Assembly: GCA_017405865.1 (NCBI GenBank)
Contig: JAFQZN010000008.1
Span: 81,539-145,538 of the forward strand
Length of the DNA stretch: 64,000 nucleotides
Direction: 5' to 3'
Source: Oscillospiraceae bacterium
Lineage (GTDB): Bacteria; Bacillota; Clostridia; Oscillospirales; Oscillospiraceae
Shown here: positions 8,337 through 14,511 of the stretch, piece by piece
Numbering within the stretch: position 1 is the first letter of the stretch
Layout: each line of letters begins with the position of its first letter
Notes under the pieces: model-generated
What the model saw: only the letters and a program-made list of their open reading frames with translations
What the model was told of the DNA's origin: nothing
The model's database searches: none
Translations under genes and position numbers: made by a program

Positions 8337-9455
8337 TCAGCGGGCGACAGAAAAGTCGTCCCACGATACAGCCTCGTTGTACGGATTGAAATGCGCGTTG
8401 ATCAGATCAATATAGTCTTGATCCAGATCGACACAGACGTAAATATCATTGAAATAGAAGGGCATGACGGTGGAATACATCGACTCCGTCCCGCAGACGG
8501 CGGCGGATTCCGCCAGCCAGTAAAGCTCAGTCAGGGACAGGTCGGTCGTGCAGTTTTTTGCGATCTTGTAAAGCGCCGCCGGGAGCTTTATGAGGTTGCG
8601 CGGCCGCGCCCACTGGTCGATCGCCGCTTTGATAAACTCACGCTGGACGGCAACTCTGCCGATGTCGGCATTTTCGTAGCCGGAACGGAACCGGACGAGT
8701 CCCATCGCCTGTTCTCCGTCCAGCTCCTGCAGACCTGCGTCGAGCGCGATATGAAGCGCCTGCGCCGGATCGTCGTAGTACATGTCGAGCGGGACGTCAA
8801 ATTCCACGCCGCCGAACAGATCGACAAGTTCAACAAAAACGTTCAGATCGACGAGAATATAGCCGTCCGGCCGGAAGCCGATGCAATCGGCAGTATAATC
8901 CATCAGCGATTGCATCCCCTTTTCTCCGCAGCCGTTGGCAGCGTAAGCGGCGTTGATTTTATGCGGCGTATAGGAGGAATTAACCTTCGTATCGCGAGGA
9001 ATACTCATAACGTTCAGAGAACGGTTTGCGCGGTCGACCTGCAGCAATAAGATCGTATCCGTGCTGTTGCTTTCGGCGTCCTCACCGACCAGAAGCACCG
9101 TGCAGCAGTCTTCCTTTCTTCCCGCAGAACGGTAGGCCGGCGCATGAGAGAAAAAGTGAAACGCTGCGCCGGCAAGAATCAGCGCAAGCAGGAAAAACAG
9201 CAGTGTTTTCAGAAGGAATCTCAAAAGGCCGTGCTTCTTTTTGCGCGGCTTGACGGGAGGCTCATTGTATTGTGCCGCTGCTCGCTCCGGGAATACGAAT
9301 TGTTCCTGCTCGGAAATATCGTCGACGTCTTCATAGGGATCAGCTTCCGAAGGAAACATTTCCTCATACGCTTCTCCGTTATAATCCGCCGACTGCGAAT
9401 CGTCCCTCGGCGGAATCGGGCGCGGGATCCATTCTTGATTCGGTTTATAGCGCAT
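8337..9455 (-). CDS. LCP (LytR-CpsA-Psr) family cell-wall polymer ligase
   Basis: Acidic N-tail and TM helix, then TDTILL, SIPRDT, KINAAY, VRFR, DIGRVAVQ; ATG at 9455 with RBS GAGGTG. Confidence 0.92.
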   Translation of the reverse strand: MRYKPNQEWIPRPIPPRDDSQSADYNGEAYEEMFPSEADPYEDVDDISEQEQFVFPERAAAQYNEPPVKPRKKKHGLLRFLLKTLLFFLLALILAGAAFHFFSHAPAYRSAGRKEDCCTVLLVGEDAESNSTDTILLLQVDRANRSLNVMSIPRDTKVNSSYTPHKINAAYAANGCGEKGMQSLMDYTADCIGFRPDGYILVDLNVFVELVDLFGGVEFDVPLDMYYDDPAQALHIALDAGLQELDGEQAMGLVRFRSGYENADIGRVAVQREFIKAAIDQWARPRNLIKLPAALYKIAKNCTTDLSLTELYWLAESAAVCGTESMYSTVMPFYFNDIYVCVDLDQDYIDLINAHFNPYNEAVSWDDFSVAR

Positions 9456-9564
9456 ACGCTCACCTCTTAACCGTATTTTACAACAGATTGTTCGTCTTGT
9501 AAATAATGAAAACTGACGTCGCAGATTGCAAAAGAAATTTGTGCATTTTTTCGGAAGATTGCTG

Positions 9565-9593
9565 TTGACAATTCCATTCTGTGGCGGTATACT
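9565..9593 (+). promoter_or_regulatory. sigmaA promoter of nrdG-nrdD-trxB
   Basis: TTGACA-17-TATACT. Confidence 0.85.
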
Positions 9594-9602
9594 TGTCAAA
9601 GG

Positions 9603-9618
9603 ACACAAGATGTTGTGG
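9603..9618 (+). promoter_or_regulatory. NrdR box
   Basis: ACACAAGATGTTGTGG matches acaCwAtATaTwGtg at 13 of 15 positions, just after the -10; a weak half-site CCACAAAAT lies about 32 nt downstream. Confidence 0.75.
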
Positions 9619-9679
9619 TTGCCGTTCGACCTTTCCACAAAATAATCCAATCCTATTTTCTCGATTTTCGGAGGCATAT

Positions 9680-10360
9680 ATGCGTATCGGAGGCCTTCAA
9701 AAGCTGACATTACTCGACTTTCCGGGACATGTTGCCTGCACGGTCTTCCTGCAGGGCTGCAACTTCCGTTGCCCCTTCTGCCACAATTCCTCGCTGGTTC
9801 TTGGGACGGAGGCAATCTCCGAAGACGAGGTTTTCCGCTTTCTGAACACGCGGCAGGGTCTTCTGGACGGCGTCGCGATCACCGGCGGCGAGCCGCTTCT
9901 TTCGGCAGATCTGCCGGACTTCCTTCGGAAGGTCAAGGCTCTCGGCTATCAGACTAAAGTTGATACCAACGGCAGCTTTCCTGAGAAGCTGCGCAGCCTG
10001 ATTGACGAAGGGCTGGTCGATTACGTCGCGATGGACGTCAAAAACAGCCCGGAAAAGTACGCCGAGACGGCCGGCGCCGAGAGCGTACTGGATGCAGTCC
10101 GGCAGAGCGTTGATATTTTAATGAAAGGCGCAGTCCCCTGCGAGTTCCGCACCACGGTGGTCGACGAGCTGCACGAGCCGTCCGATTTTGAAGCGATCGG
10201 CAGATGGCTTTCCGGCGCGCAGCGCTATTTTCTGCAGGGCTTCGTTGATTCCGGCGATATTCTGCGCCCCGGCCTGCACGCGGCAAGCAAGGAAAAAATG
10301 AAGCAATGTCTGGAAGCAGTCATTCCCTATCTTCCCACGTCACAAATCAGAGGTTTATAA
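9680..10360 (+). CDS. nrdG: Anaerobic RNR activating radical-SAM protein (NrdG2 type)
   Basis: MRIGGLQKLTLLDFPG, CNFRCPFCHN CxxxCxxC, ITGGEP, VDTNG, MDVK, EFRTT. Confidence 0.95.
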   Translation: MRIGGLQKLTLLDFPGHVACTVFLQGCNFRCPFCHNSSLVLGTEAISEDEVFRFLNTRQGLLDGVAITGGEPLLSADLPDFLRKVKALGYQTKVDTNGSFPEKLRSLIDEGLVDYVAMDVKNSPEKYAETAGAESVLDAVRQSVDILMKGAVPCEFRTTVVDELHEPSDFEAIGRWLSGAQRYFLQGFVDSGDILRPGLHAASKEKMKQCLEAVIPYLPTSQIRGL

Positions 10361-10385
10361 TATTCAAGAATAGAGGAGAGTTATT

Positions 10386-12773
10386 ATGTATCAAGTAGTA
10401 AAGCGCAATGACAAGGTCGTGGATTTCGACCTGTCGAAGATCTGTGTAGCCATTCAGAAGGCGTTTGACGCCCTCGGCAAGGACTACAACAAGGACACCA
10501 TCGACTTCCTCGCGCTCAAGGTAACGGCTGACTTTGAGCCGAAGATCAGAGATGGCAAGATCGCCGTGGAGGACGTGCAGGACAGCGTCGAGACCGTTTT
10601 GAGCCGCGCAGGCTACGACGACGTTGCAAAGGCGTATATCCTCTACCGCCGTCAGAGAGAAAAGATCCGCAACATGAAGTCCACCATTCTCGACTACAAG
10701 GAGCTTGTGGACAGCTACGTCAAGGCGCAGGACTGGCGCGTGAAGGAGAACTCCACCGTCACCTACTCCGTCGGCGGCCTGATCCTCTCGAACTCCGGCG
10801 CGATCACCGCAAACTACTGGCTCAGCGAAATCTACGACGATGAGATCGCAAACGCGCACAAGAACTGTGACCTGCACATCCACGATATGTCCATGCTGAC
10901 CGGCTACTGCGCAGGCTGGTCCCTGCGTCAGCTCATCCAGGAAGGCCTCGGCGGCGTTCCCGGCAAGATCACCTCCGCTCCGGCGAAGCATCTTTCCTCT
11001 CTGTGCAACCAGATGGTCAATTTCCTCGGCATCATGCAGAACGAATGGGCAGGCGCGCAGGCGTTCTCGTCCTTCGACACCTATCTTGCTCCGTTCGTCA
11101 AGGTCGACAACCTGAACTACGACCAAGTGAAAAAGTGCGTCGAGTCCTTCATCTACGGCGTCAACACTCCGTCCAGATGGGGTACGCAGGCGCCCTTCTC
11201 CAACGTTACGCTCGACTGGACCGTTCCGGATGACATGGCGGAGCTGCCCGCGATCGTCGGCGGCAAGGAGATGCCCTTCAAGTACAAGGACTGCAAGGCG
11301 GAGATGGACATGGTCAACCGCGCCTTCATTGAGATCATGATCGAAGGCGACGCAAACGGCCGCGGCTTCCAGTATCCGATCCCCACCTATTCCATCACGA
11401 AGGAATTTGACTGGTCCGAGACGGAGAACAACAAGCTCCTGTTCGAGATGACAGCAAAGTACGGCACTCCTTATTTCTCCAACTACGTCAACAGCGATAT
11501 GCAGCCGAGCGACGTGCGCTCCATGTGCTGCCGTCTGCGTCTTGACCTGCGCGAGCTGCGCAAGAAATCCGGCGGCTTCTTTGGCAGCGGCGAATCCACC
11601 GGCTCGGTCGGCGTCGTCACGATCAACATGCCGAAGATCGCGTACCTTTCCAAGACGCCGGAGGAATTCTATAAGCGTCTGGATCACCTGATGGACATTG
11701 CCGCCCGTTCCCTGAAGATCAAGCGCACCGTCATTACCCGCCTGATGGAAGAGGGTCTGTACCCCTACACCAAGCGCTATCTCGGCACCTTTGAAAACCA
11801 CTTCTCCACCCTCGGCCTGATCGGCATGAATGAGGTCGGCCTGAATGCAAAGTGGCTGCGCAAGGACATGACGCACAAGGAAACGCAGGAGTTTACGAAG
11901 GAAGTTCTGAACCACATGCGCGAGCGCCTGTCCGACTATCAGGAGCAGTACGGCGACCTGTACAACCTCGAGGCGACCCCTGCCGAGTCCACGACCTACC
12001 GTCTTGCAAAGCATGACAAGAAGGACTTCCCCGACATCATCACCGCCAACGAGAACGGCACCCCGTACTACACCAACTCCTCTCACCTGCCCGTCGGCTA
12101 CACGGAGGACATCTTCTCCGCACTGGACGTGCAGGACGAGCTGCAGACGCTTTACACCTCCGGCACCGTCTTCCACGCCTTCCTCGGCGAGAAGCTGCCC
12201 GACTGGCGCTCTGCCGCAGCGCTGGTGCGAAAGATCGCGGAGAATTACCGCCTGCCGTACTACACCCTTTCCCCGACCTACTCCGTCTGCCGCGAGCACG
12301 GCTATATCACCGGCGAGCAGTACACCTGCCCGATCTGCGGCAAGCCGACCGAGGTCTACAGCCGTATCACCGGCTACTACCGCCCCGTGCAGAACTTCAA
12401 CGACGGCAAGGCGCAGGAATTCAAGGATCGTCTGGAATATAACGTTGCAAGCTCCATGAAAAACCGTTTCGGTACGCCGGAAGCTCCCGCGCAGAGCGAA
12501 ACGGAAGCACCTGCCGCTGCAGAAAGCTGCGGCGATGGCAGATTGGTTCTCTTCACCACGAGCACCTGCCCGAAGTGCGTCATGGCAAAGAAGTTCCTCG
12601 CCGACGCAGGCATTGCTTACGAGACGGTCGTCGTTGACGAAACGCCCGAGGCAGCGAGAAAGTACGGTGTGCGTCAGGCGCCCACCCTGCTGATCCTTGA
12701 CGGCGACAAGGAAATCGAGCGCGTGGAGAATCCCTCCAACATCCGCGCCTTTGCGGACGCACACAAGGCGTAA
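10386..12773 (+). CDS. nrdD: Class III ribonucleotide reductase with N-terminal ATP cone and fused C-terminal glutaredoxin/NrdH-like domain
   Basis: ATP cone, YCAG, SMCCRL loop, CREHG..CPICG Zn site, YSRITGY glycyl-radical loop; then an Ala/Pro/Glu linker and LFTTSTCPKC...QAPTL. Confidence 0.95.
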   Translation: MYQVVKRNDKVVDFDLSKICVAIQKAFDALGKDYNKDTIDFLALKVTADFEPKIRDGKIAVEDVQDSVETVLSRAGYDDVAKAYILYRRQREKIRNMKSTILDYKELVDSYVKAQDWRVKENSTVTYSVGGLILSNSGAITANYWLSEIYDDEIANAHKNCDLHIHDMSMLTGYCAGWSLRQLIQEGLGGVPGKITSAPAKHLSSLCNQMVNFLGIMQNEWAGAQAFSSFDTYLAPFVKVDNLNYDQVKKCVESFIYGVNTPSRWGTQAPFSNVTLDWTVPDDMAELPAIVGGKEMPFKYKDCKAEMDMVNRAFIEIMIEGDANGRGFQYPIPTYSITKEFDWSETENNKLLFEMTAKYGTPYFSNYVNSDMQPSDVRSMCCRLRLDLRELRKKSGGFFGSGESTGSVGVVTINMPKIAYLSKTPEEFYKRLDHLMDIAARSLKIKRTVITRLMEEGLYPYTKRYLGTFENHFSTLGLIGMNEVGLNAKWLRKDMTHKETQEFTKEVLNHMRERLSDYQEQYGDLYNLEATPAESTTYRLAKHDKKDFPDIITANENGTPYYTNSSHLPVGYTEDIFSALDVQDELQTLYTSGTVFHAFLGEKLPDWRSAAALVRKIAENYRLPYYTLSPTYSVCREHGYITGEQYTCPICGKPTEVYSRITGYYRPVQNFNDGKAQEFKDRLEYNVASSMKNRFGTPEAPAQSETEAPAAAESCGDGRLVLFTTSTCPKCVMAKKFLADAGIAYETVVVDETPEAARKYGVRQAPTLLILDGDKEIERVENPSNIRAFADAHKA

Positions 12774-12784
12774 GAGGGCTTTGT

Positions 12785-13687
12785 ATGTATGATATTATCA
12801 TCGTCGGCGCAGGTCCTGCGGGTCTGACCGCAGCGATCTACGCGCGGCGCGCCGGAAAGAGCGTCCTCGTACTGGAAAAGGACACCTTCGGCGGGCAGGT
12901 CACCTTCTCCCCGAAGCTGGAAAACTATCCGGGATTTCAGGAGATCAGCGGCAACGAGCTGGCGCAGAAAATGCTTGAGCAGGCGCTCGCGCTCGGCGCG
13001 GACGTCGATATGGATAACGTGACAGACGTTATTGGCGGCAATGTGAAAACCGTTATCGGCGAAAATGCGACGTACGAGGCGAAGGCCGTCATCATTGCAG
13101 CGGGCGCACGGCACCGCAGACTGGGTCTTCCCCGTGAAGAGGAACTAATCGGAAACGGCATCTCCTTCTGCGCGGTCTGCGACGGCGCGTTCTACAAGGG
13201 GCAGCACGTCGCCGTGATCGGCGGCGGCAATACCGCCCTGCAGGAGATCCTGCTCCTGTCCGAGGTCTGCAGCAAGGTCACGGTCGTGCAGAATCTCGCC
13301 TTCCTGACCGGCGAGCAGAAGATGATCGACGCGGTGCAGTCCAGAGAAAACGTTGACGTGATCTATTCCACCGTCGTCACCGCCTACGAGGGCGAAAGCA
13401 GCCTGACCGCGCTCCGTCTGATCAACACCGAGACGAACGAGGAAAGCCGCCTGGAAGTGGACGGCGCCTTCCTCGCCATCGGCACGGTGCCGGAAAACGG
13501 CGCGTATCAGAAGGTCGCAAAGATCAACGAGCAAGGCTATATCGAAGCGGACGAGCGCTGCATGACGAATACGCCCGGCGTCTTCGTCGCAGGCGACTGC
13601 CGGACGAAGACCTACCGTCAGGTCGCCACGGCGATTGCAGACGGCGCAGCCGCCGCGCTCAACGCCTGCCGCTATCTCGATGCATGA
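12785..13687 (+). CDS. trxB: Thioredoxin reductase-like flavoprotein with atypical nucleotide-binding motif
   Basis: GAGPAG, ENYPGF, FCAVCDG, GGGNTA, GVFVAGD, QVATAIADG; the HRR position reads QNL. Confidence 0.88.
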   Translation: MYDIIIVGAGPAGLTAAIYARRAGKSVLVLEKDTFGGQVTFSPKLENYPGFQEISGNELAQKMLEQALALGADVDMDNVTDVIGGNVKTVIGENATYEAKAVIIAAGARHRRLGLPREEELIGNGISFCAVCDGAFYKGQHVAVIGGGNTALQEILLLSEVCSKVTVVQNLAFLTGEQKMIDAVQSRENVDVIYSTVVTAYEGESSLTALRLINTETNEESRLEVDGAFLAIGTVPENGAYQKVAKINEQGYIEADERCMTNTPGVFVAGDCRTKTYRQVATAIADGAAAALNACRYLDA

Positions 13688-13689
13688 TT

Positions 13690-13726
13690 AAAAACGGACT
13701 TCTCATAATAAGAGAAGTCCGTTTTT
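13690..13726. terminator. Bidirectional intrinsic terminator ending the nrd operon
   Basis: 15-bp perfect stem AAAAACGGACTTCTC/GAGAAGTCCGTTTTT. Confidence 0.9.
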
Positions 13727-13738
13727 GTCGGTGTCGTA

Positions 13739-14293
13739 TTACTCTGCGGAAGATTCCTCGGTTTTCTCTTCTCGCAGCTCTGCACCGTAGCGGCAGATGA
13801 CCGAGGTGACGATCATCATCACGCCCAAGCCGAGAGAAGTAAAACGGTCAAGCGTAAGCTCGTTCATCTCCGGATGTGCCGCAGTTACAGCAGCAATACC
13901 GATGGAGCAGACGATCGCCGTGCAGATCGGAATCACGATGGCAAGGATGCCCAAACGCTTCAGCTCCTTCGCGCCGCGCGTCGTAAAGGGCGTTCCGTCA
14001 GCCAGCTCGTTACGAAAATAAATCTCTGCGAATTTGGAGAGAACGGCCTCCGAAGCGCACAGCACCATACCGACGCCTATCTCGGTATAGAGCGCAGCTG
14101 TACTCAAGCCGGCTTTATTCTCGATGATGCTGCGGATGGTAACGCCGCCGACCTTGAAGCTCTCAAATCCGGCAATCAGACTGATCAGACCGACAATGCA
14201 GATGCAGAAGCAGACGATGCAGAGAATAAAAATAATCTTGCTGAAGATTCTTCCGATCTTTGCCAGCACCTGAATGGTCTTTAACGATTTCAT
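13739..14293 (-). CDS. Membrane protein, DUF2975-like
   Basis: Four hydrophobic segments and GTPFT..AKELKRLG; own RBS AGGAGGAG and TTGACA-17-TATAAT promoter (14330-14358). Confidence 0.65.
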   Translation of the reverse strand: MKSLKTIQVLAKIGRIFSKIIFILCIVCFCICIVGLISLIAGFESFKVGGVTIRSIIENKAGLSTAALYTEIGVGMVLCASEAVLSKFAEIYFRNELADGTPFTTRGAKELKRLGILAIVIPICTAIVCSIGIAAVTAAHPEMNELTLDRFTSLGLGVMMIVTSVICRYGAELREEKTEESSAE

Positions 14294-14511
14294 ATGCAGC
14301 TCCTCCTGTAAAGTAACTTTGCACTTTGCATTATAATGAATCCGTCGTTTCTTGTCAAGTCAAATCACCTTTCGTGTGATTCCGCTCACCAAATAAGCGA
14401 CCTCTGCCAAATTCAACAATAATTGTCATTGATAATCGTTCAAATAACGGTGAAACTACGGATGAGGTCATCAAACCGTATTGATGACTGAAACTGTAAA
14501 AGGAGATGACA

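Follow-up and report, generated by a model that had tools for sequence, protein, structure and literature searches.

Class III ribonucleotide reductase with a C-terminal redoxin domain

The DNA analysed here, referred to as the window, is a 64,000-nucleotide (nt) stretch of a genome assembled from an Oscillospiraceae bacterium (contig JAFQZN010000008.1), and the gene of interest within it encodes NrdD, the catalytic subunit of the anaerobic class III ribonucleotide reductase (RNR). This NrdD is a class III catalytic subunit with an extra redoxin domain at its C-terminus, and its gene is flanked on the same strand by nrdG, which encodes the activase of NrdD, and by a gene for a flavoprotein that resembles low-Mr thioredoxin reductases (TrxR) (Table 1). 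Membership in the NrdD family is evident from the match to TIGR02487 (510 bits, cut-off 326), and the NCBIfam model PRK08270 matched with 1134 bits (cut-off 548) across residues 1–687; since this model ends at residue 687, the sequence beyond approximately that point is additional to the enzyme. Gly663 aligns with Gly621 of Thermotoga maritima NrdD, and both the glycyl-radical site and the zinc ribbon that characterize NrdD are present, with zinc-ribbon ligands that comprise three Cys and one His rather than four Cys and are invariant in the alignment of homologues. An initial annotation, made from the sequence alone, had reported the motifs CPKC, SMCCRL, GESTGS (amino acids (aa) 402–407), RITGY, and QAP, and on re-reading of the open reading frame all of these motifs and their coordinates were exact. 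It had also described an Ala/Pro/Glu linker followed by a thioredoxin-fold domain with CPKC and a cis-Pro, a layout to which Pfam, AlphaFold2, and the homologues all point.

Table 1 Genes, domains, motifs, and candidate regulatory elements of the nrdD-redoxin locus (window positions)
Feature	Position (nt)	Strand	Remarks
Sigma-70-like promoter candidate, TTGACA-17-TATACT	9565–9593	+	11/12 hexamer matches; consensus match only
NrdR-box-like palindrome, ACACAAGATGTTGTGG	9603–9618	+	Match to ACACWATATATWGTGT
nrdG, radical S-adenosylmethionine (SAM) activase of NrdD (226 aa)	9680–10360	+	NrdG2-type; CNFRCPFC cluster motif
nrdD-redoxin fusion gene	10386–12773	+	Open frame, 795 aa plus stop
ATP-cone, allosteric on/off domain (aa 3–92)	10392–10661	+	PF03477, E 4e-21
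NrdD catalytic barrel and glycyl-radical domain (aa 121–685)	10746–12440	+	PF13597, E 9e-188
Cys175 on strand beta-A	10908–10910	+	Equivalent to T. maritima Cys125 in the alignment with solved NrdDs
Finger-loop SMCCRL, aa 379–384 (Met380, Cys381, Cys382)	11520–11537	+	Equivalent to T. maritima S328-C329-C330
Glu529	11970–11972	+	Opposite T. maritima Glu495, the residue proposed to handle the proton in thiol-type NrdD2
Zinc-ribbon ligands C635-x2-H638 ... C648-x2-C651, glycyl-radical domain	12288–12338	+	Metal binding inferred by homology
Glycyl-radical motif RITGY, aa 660–664 (Gly663)	12363–12377	+	
Flexible Ala/Pro/Glu-rich linker, aa 686–718 (~33 aa)	12441–12539	+	Single Cys, C715
Glutaredoxin-sized thioredoxin-fold redoxin domain, aa 719–795 (77 aa)	12540–12770	+	
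CPKC, aa 728–731	12567–12578	+	
Ala765-Pro766, within QAP (aa 764–766)	12678–12683	+	
Low-Mr TrxR-like flavoprotein gene (300 aa)	12785–13687	+	Starts 11 nt after nrdD stop; GAGPAG (aa 8–13, FAD), GGGNTALQE
GNG in place of thioredoxin-docking G[R/K]G	13151–13159	+	
CAVC of the flavoprotein, aa 129–132	13169–13180	+	
VTVVQNLAFLTGE in place of VxxxHRRDxxR	13277–13315	+	Alignment with solved TrxRs

Identity of the redoxin domain

The general Pfam Glutaredoxin family (PF00462) matched aa 721–770 with 39 bits (gathering threshold 22.9, E 9e-10), the tail on its own scored 42.5 bits, and the same family was the best Pfam match in all 15 diverse family members examined. An AlphaFold2 model of the last 98 residues, with a predicted local distance difference test score (pLDDT) of about 90, has the order b1-a1-b2-a2-b3-b4-a3, in which helix 1 starts at CPKC and strand 3 comes right after Pro766; the ~20 linker residues ahead of the fold were modelled with a pLDDT of about 50. 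All of the top 50 Foldseek matches to the model were thioredoxins (E ~1e-5, template modelling score 0.55–0.67), and a profile search of the PDB ranked the Pyrococcus protein-disulfide oxidoreductase (“glutaredoxin-like protein”), the MJ0307 redoxin, and thioredoxins above NrdH. The modelled fold, the CxxC pair, and the cis-Pro place the domain among the thioredoxin-fold dithiol oxidoreductases at the superfamily level. Across homologues that are 38–68% identical, the C-P-x-C motif, the Ala-Pro of the cis-Pro loop, and N-x-S-N-I are invariant or nearly so (family signatures T-C-P-[K/N]-C, Q/E-A-P-T-L, and N-x-S-N-I-[R/K]), and conservation of these motifs at such identities makes the domain far more than a chance match.

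More specific assignments were rejected. As a classical glutaredoxin (Grx) the domain scored only 26–30 against a cut-off of 90 for TIGR02181 and 21–22 against 129 for PRK10638, and it has CPKC rather than CP[YF]C. As an NrdH-redoxin it scored 29–32 against 85.75 for TIGR02194 and 25–29 against 131 for PRK10329, again with CPKC and in a class III context. The Cp9/YruB model TIGR02196 was the best NCBIfam match and yet reached 30–34 bits against a cut-off of 88.55. Published motifs are C[VMI]QC for NrdH and CP[YW]C (C[PGI][PYWQ]C) for Cp9/YruB, both with Gly-Phe after the cis-Pro (PMC3720550), a position at which N-x-S-N-I stands in the window domain. The initial annotation had proposed a profile search for Grx or NrdH in the tail, and of these the general family PF00462 was found while the specific Grx and NrdH models were not. 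We therefore treat the domain as a separate subfamily among thioredoxin-fold redoxins of Grx size, for which “small thioredoxin-fold redoxin” is the safer name.

The proximity of the Cp9 model raises the alternative that the redoxin and the flavoprotein serve a peroxiredoxin-type defence against oxygen or peroxide, as in the clostridial Cp34/Cp9/Cp20 system, and that the redoxin was fused to the oxygen-sensitive NrdD for its local protection. Cp9 partners an NADH-dependent TrxR-like protein (PMC3720550), and YruB/Cp9 is the closest specific model, albeit far under its cut-off. Against this, neither the operon nor the loci examined contain a peroxiredoxin gene, and the domain lacks both the CP[YW]C of Cp9 and the Gly-Phe after the cis-Pro; we consider this explanation very improbable.

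Distribution of the fusion

We scanned one genome per GTDB species using the domain alignment as the query, which returned at least 600 stretches, 588 of them confirmed relatives; the locus counts given below refer to the best 80 genome loci of that scan, from at least 80 species. The fusion is widespread: at each of the 80 loci a single open frame holds both the domain and the RITGY motif of NrdD, in independent assemblies that include RefSeq isolates. The three-domain architecture was likewise found in 120 of the best 120 protein clusters, which are mostly 81–100% identical, the named ones deriving from metagenome-assembled genomes of Oscillospiraceae, Faecousia, or Ruminococcaceae. Fusions were also detected on 16 viral contigs of IMG/VR (L083–L098), with SMCCRL, NLEATPAE, and CPNC or CPKC. 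An assembly, frameshift, or gene-calling artefact could in principle produce such a gene, and many short “free-standing” matches exist in the databases; we found no support for it, and the recurrence of the same in-frame junction in 80/80 genome loci, 16 viral contigs, and 120 protein clusters across independent assemblies effectively refutes it, leaving this explanation practically no probability.

The short matches were considered as stand-alone paralogues and mostly rejected, because they begin within the NrdD C-terminus or at contig ends. Only P0167 and the viral contig L099 look truly free-standing, the latter encoding an 80-aa CPKC redoxin approximately 500 nt upstream of a distant NrdD. 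A search of representatives at 50% identity with the domain as the query gave many related redoxin sequences of 80–160 aa and no full-length fusion among the 150 matches listed, a result that is uninformative on frequency; fused NrdDs clustering under unfused representatives would possibly explain their absence there.

Host taxa include Oscillospiraceae, Acutalibacteraceae, Lachnospiraceae (Blautia, Dorea, and Faecalicatena orotica DSM 1287), Christensenellaceae, Anaerovoracaceae, Acetobacterium malicum DSM 4132, Pseudoflavonifractor phocaeensis, and Lentisphaeria/Victivallales. SMCCRL is identical in 76 of the 80 loci, the other 4 ending before the motif, and NLEATPAE was found wherever the region is present except in two loci that the Glu-motif pattern did not match. 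Identity to the window is 74–93% in the NrdD core and 43–83% in the redoxin domain; to judge from these alignments, the fused NrdDs are one tight clade in which the appended domain evolves faster while its catalytic residues are kept. The linker varies in length and sequence across homologues, with 39–117 aa between RITGY and CPxC (68 in the window), and the single linker cysteine of the window, C715, is not conserved. Overall, linkers range from ~4 to more than 80 residues, the shortest being viral (~4–9 residues); 8 of the 16 viral fusions have 39–44 aa from RITGY to CPxC, and 6 of the 16 lack the ATP-cone.

Several other features of the homologues were observed. Of 81 fused proteins, 29 have cysteines closely paired or clustered within the linker (CxC, CC, CxxC, or CCCC), often amid acidic residues (for example L010, L023, L027, L043, L069, L080, P0011, and P0212). 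Some fused homologues have apparent inteins (P0212, 1041 aa; L083 and L084, with frames of 1174 and 1328 aa), one of which is inserted at the active-site finger-loop cysteines. P0011 (950 aa) has an internal duplication of ~155 aa, from “WGTQAPF” to “PRIAYL”, that is probably an assembly artefact of a single metagenome contig.

The downstream reductase and its linkage to the fusion

The product of the downstream gene scored 332.6 bits against the thioredoxin reductase model TIGR01292, slightly below the cut-off of 343.45, and its best matches in the PDB are TrxRs, with E values down to 6e-75. It has the FAD motif and the redox-active CxxC of low-Mr TrxB. The features of canonical TrxB, namely the HRRD motif that recognizes the 2'-phosphate and the G[R/K]G motif, are absent, and every aligned solved TrxR has HRRD (definitions VxxxHRRDx[F/L]R and G[R/K]G from PMC5627308). 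NADPH appears to be an unlikely donor of electrons to this reductase, because the HRRD motif is replaced and GNG stands in place of G[R/K]G. The dinucleotide pyrophosphate motif is retained as GGGNTA (GGGxxA), and because it is intact NADH would be a reasonable guess; whether NADH or another donor feeds the enzyme is, from these motifs, only a guess. The QNLxxxTGE motif that replaces HRRD was not found among those of the atypical TrxR groups described in PMC5627308 (TRi, dcTR1, TR3, and FFTR). QNL-type reductases, both those neighbouring fused NrdDs and metagenome copies, were also seen to be usually without the basic residue of the thioredoxin-docking G[R/K]G.

The initial annotation had asked whether the fusion co-occurs with an adjacent trxB, and a gene of the TrxR family does lie directly downstream, within 400 nt and on the same strand, in 56 of the 78 loci that could be evaluated (72%). 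Of these 56 reductases, 44 are of the QNLxxxTGE type found in the window and 12 are of the canonical HRR type. Among the rest of the 80 loci, 3 have a reductase gene farther off, 19 lack one over at least 1.2 kb, and 2 are cut short by the contig end. We looked for an alternative reductase gene in the 19 loci and found only unrelated genes downstream. In one of them, the Lachnospiraceae locus L045, the gene ~110 nt downstream of the fused nrdD resembles thymidylate synthase by sequence, and would add a further neighbour from the dNTP pathway.

For the reverse test, we searched metagenome contigs with a degenerate DNA pattern for V-Q-N-L-x3-T-G-E, ignoring NrdD. Upstream sequence of 600 nt or more was available for 51 QNL-type reductase genes, and a fused NrdD directly precedes 38 of them; 2 of the remainder have a fused NrdD within ~3 kb, and 11 are located elsewhere. 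The linkage between the fusion and the reductase is strong in both directions but not obligate.

Type of NrdD and its reductant

In an alignment with the solved NrdDs 8p23, 4coi, and 4u3e, C381-C382 lie opposite C329-C330 of T. maritima, and E529 in YNLEATPAE aligns with T. maritima E495 in FNIEQVPAE, where the formate-type NrdD of P. copri has a Leu. In the methods of Burnim et al. (bioRxiv 10.1101/2022.04.23.489257), the column of the proton-donor Glu is residue 495 of Q9WYL6 and SCCR is residues 328–331. The subtypes of Wei et al. 2014, as summarized in PMC4493059, are distinguished by these same residues: NrdD2 has a third Cys and the Glu, with a Met in some members, NrdD3 has the Cys without the Glu, and NrdD1 has neither. 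With its third Cys, C381, and Glu529, the window enzyme is by published residue criteria a thiol-type NrdD2. The defining Glu had at first been placed in GESTGS (E403), but T. maritima has GGSDLNIGS at that position and the residue in its 495 column is E529. By contrast, the active loop had been correctly read as SMCCRL.

The initial annotation had further described N. bacilliformis and T. maritima NrdD as SMCC-type enzymes that use thioredoxin-like reductants. According to the summaries in PMC9669993 and PMC4390871, the N. bacilliformis enzyme does use thioredoxin and TrxR, and in the former summary the Glu is proposed to be essential for its formate-independent reduction; the SMCC motif does not apply, as both enzymes have SCCR without the Met (PMC9669993, PMC4493059). 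The window’s SMCCR does retain the Met of formate-type enzymes, as Met380. Enzymes with both the Met and the double Cys make up 83% of double-Cys sequences, and for these either reductant is possible (Burnim et al. 2022). Formate might accordingly be the physiological reductant, acting through Met380 and Cys175, with the redoxin and the reductase as a backup, a dual-mode arrangement, or a redox switch. The MCCR loop keeps the Met that forms a thiosulfuranyl radical in E. coli NrdD, which speaks for this alternative, whereas Glu529 is present and an attached redoxin with a linked reductase gene would be costly for a mere backup; we regard it as unlikely.

Operon organization and expression

The intergenic gaps are 25 nt between nrdG and nrdD and 11 nt between nrdD and the reductase gene, and because the gene after the reductase is on the opposite strand the unit comprises nrdG - nrdD::redoxin - trxR-like. 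NrdG matched TIGR02495 (NrdG2) with 214 bits (cut-off 131) as well as the Pfam family Radical_SAM, which identifies it as the partner activase, and a GGAGG lies 7 nt ahead of its ATG. With up to 3 mismatches allowed, the palindrome ACACAAGATGTTGTGG is the sole site of the 64-kb window that matches ACACWATATATWGTGT, which we take to be the NrdR-box consensus (0.10 matches expected by chance); no second NrdR box was obvious by eye. This NrdR-like box is preceded by a strong sigma-70-like promoter and followed by the start codon of nrdG, a location that suggests repression of the nrdG-nrdD-trxR-like operon by NrdR. An Rfam scan of positions 9000–14500 (E <=0.1) gave no match, and so no riboswitch or leader RNA, and a terminator scan gave nothing convincing 3' of the reductase gene.

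Related sequence was detected in only one metatranscriptome run (X1), at 6% of the sampled words. A sheep-gut metatranscriptome contig of 1078 nt, ~88% identical, matches window positions 12171–13251 and covers the glycyl-radical domain, the linker, the redoxin domain, and the first half of the reductase gene. This contig is consistent with, and lends weak support to, co-transcription of nrdD and the reductase gene in a related strain, DNA carry-over being possible.

A proposed electron route

Taken together, we think it probable from the genomic evidence that nrdG - nrdD::redoxin - trxR-like is a thiol module for anaerobic synthesis of deoxyribonucleotides (dNTPs), in which part of the electron supply is carried by the enzyme itself. 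In this module NrdG would place the glycyl radical on Gly663, and the radical would then move to a finger-loop cysteine, C381 or C382, to start reduction of the ribonucleotide (NTP). Cys175 and the other finger-loop Cys would give two reducing equivalents while Glu529 manages the proton, which would leave a disulfide in the active site. We infer these steps because the enzyme belongs to NrdD2, as described for N. bacilliformis; radical transfer to a finger-loop Cys and, in thiol-type enzymes, a disulfide between the beta-A Cys and a finger-loop Cys are established in the literature for the class III family. The tethered redoxin (Cys728/Cys731) would re-reduce the active-site disulfide of its own subunit or of the partner subunit of the dimer, and the downstream flavoprotein would recharge the redoxin through its CAVC disulfide and FAD. 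These two steps are proposed because of the conservation of the fusion, the two-way synteny, and a precedent in Facklamia ignava, in which a Grx fused to the class I subunit NrdB acts as the RNR reductant (PMC6187632), a characterized fusion to which the initial annotation had rightly referred. That annotation had put forward a relay from TrxB to a fused Grx to the active-site disulfide; the core of this idea, a tethered redoxin with a reductase as neighbour, is well supported by comparative genomics (80/80, 56/78, and 38/51), but the neighbour is not a canonical TrxB and the domain is not a Grx proper.

The flavoprotein would probably be fed by NADH or another non-NADPH donor, which is the weakest step of the chain. 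That a QNLxxxTGE flavoprotein with a non-NADPH donor (NADH or a low-potential carrier) feeds the tethered redoxin, giving a self-contained chain in gut Clostridia, Lentisphaeria, and phages, is a more tentative proposal, to which we give clearly less than an even chance.

Several observations weigh against the thiol module. Because Met380 is kept, the residues of the formate/thiosulfuranyl route are present too (PMC9669993). No reductase gene is nearby in 19 of the 78 evaluable loci, and none was found near the fusion on the 16 viral contigs, which would thus depend on a host reductase. As the fused NrdDs share 74% core identity or more and belong to a single clade, the 96 fused loci are not independent tests, and they may trace to one or a few fusion events. 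Lastly, the class III active site is buried, and a folded redoxin would have to reach it. A full-length AlphaFold2 model (31 sequences, 84–96% identity) had a mean pLDDT of 50.7, at which neither docking nor the finger-loop conformation is readable. In dATP-inhibited P. copri NrdD the whole glycyl-radical domain is disordered (PMC11226230), and a redoxin on its end could therefore approach the barrel when the domain moves, although this is speculation. It is equally speculative that the short viral linkers indicate a working position near the exit of the C-terminus.

The attachment of the redoxin directly to the glycyl-radical/zinc-ribbon domain, with viral linkers of ~4–9 residues that put it alongside, also bears on the possibility that it keeps NrdD activatable, by reducing adventitious disulfides such as those of the zinc-ribbon Cys, instead of feeding turnover. 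Thioredoxin has a comparable role in activating the formate-type class III RNR of E. coli (Padovani et al. 2001, as cited in PMC4390871). Maintenance would be equally useful to formate-type NrdDs, however, yet all fusions found are of the Cys-Cys plus Glu type, an argument that is itself weakened by their common descent; moreover, the zinc site offers only three Cys and a His, and the presence of a dedicated reductase gene at 72% of loci points to a stoichiometric flow of electrons and not an occasional one. We judge this alternative to have a small chance of being correct, and prefer the thiol module.

Significance and comparison with known systems

Class III RNR is the only route to dNTP precursors in many strict anaerobes, abundant gut Clostridia included. 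The arrangement described here bears on two questions, namely which reductant serves the double-Cys NrdDs that keep the Met, and how a redoxin gains access to the class III active site. A natural NrdD-redoxin fusion together with a reductase gene is genomic evidence for thiol-based reduction in this group, and a reductase without the NADPH motif is a hint that these organisms connect dNTP supply to central metabolism in a different way. If the self-contained chain with a non-NADPH donor is real, the majority MCCR-plus-Glu class III RNRs would be shown to be thiol-driven, and because the redoxin is tethered, the still unseen complex between a protein reductant and a class III active site could be trapped. 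A single polypeptide, the prospect of a mixed-disulfide trap, and natural linker-length variants provide an experimental handle, and cultured carriers (F. orotica DSM 1287, A. malicum DSM 4132, and P. phocaeensis) make such work feasible.

A full-text literature search, outside which Wei et al. 2014 itself lies, returned no biochemical or structural study of an NrdD-redoxin fusion, in agreement with the initial annotation, which knew of none. That annotation had also supposed that such fusions may be listed in surveys, and one Glutaredoxin:NrdD row does occur in a 2018 RefSeq survey (PMC6187632, Table S1), in a paper which states that Grx fusions occur with all RNR components (Rozman Grinberg et al. 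2018). This row, from Lachnospiraceae bacterium TWA4 (WP_082039398.1, NrdDd), has the same domain pair, also in Clostridia, and may belong to the window’s family; it is known from the table row alone, without domain order, context, or function. A 2022 survey of RNR insertions and extensions gives only the glycyl-radical domain at the C-terminus of class III enzymes, and a 2015 review describes class III as lacking an external cysteine pair, whereas class I and II active sites need a C-terminal shuttle Cys pair (PMC4390871). Pfam recognizes each of the three domains, so domain databases must already display this architecture.

Among characterized enzymes, the NrdD2 of N. bacilliformis and T. 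maritima (PDB 4COI/4U3E) resemble the window enzyme in the beta-A Cys, the two finger-loop Cys, and the Glu at 495. They have SCCR, belong to the subclass NrdDh, and use a separate thioredoxin, whereas the window enzyme has SMCCR, matches PRK08270, and combines a covalent redoxin with a reductase gene. The Grx::ATP-cone::NrdB of F. ignava (PMC6187632) is likewise a small redoxin fused to an RNR, and there the redoxin was shown to be the reductant. There, a glutathione-dependent redoxin with CPWC is attached to the N-terminus of the radical-generating subunit, and the enzyme is an aerobic one of class I. In the window, a redoxin with CPKC is attached to the C-terminus of the catalytic subunit, the enzyme is an anaerobic one of class III, and a TrxR-like partner is encoded next to it. 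The NrdD3 of Methanosarcina barkeri pairs a Grx-like redoxin (NrdH) with a dedicated non-NADPH reductase, a ferredoxin:disulfide reductase (PMC9176816, Table 1). Unlike in the window, these are separate polypeptides, and NrdD3 lacks the Glu. The M. barkeri reductase is said, in work of Wei et al. from 2015, to be an Fe-S enzyme rather than a TrxR-family flavoprotein.

Considered by its parts, the window domain is like NrdH and Cp9/YruB (PMC3720550) in its length of ~75–80 aa and its Grx-like fold, and both of these are reduced by TrxR-family proteins, with NrdH serving RNR; NrdH has C[VMI]QC and is encoded in nrdHIEF operons, whereas the window family has T-C-P-[KN]-C and N-x-S-N-I-[RK]. The reductase is similar to DvTRi, FFTR, the TrxR of T. 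acidophilum, and dcTR1/TR3 (PMC5627308), which share the TrxR fold and CxxC, have a replaced 2'-phosphate motif, and occur in anaerobes including Clostridia; TRi has TQ/NGK and a degenerate pyrophosphate motif, while the window reductase keeps GGGxxA and has the conserved QNLxxxTGE. Thiol-dependent class III RNRs and redoxin-RNR fusions are already known, and their combination is no surprise in principle; what seems not to have been described before is how broadly the fusion is distributed, how tightly it is linked to a TrxR-family gene, and that this gene has a non-NADPH motif.

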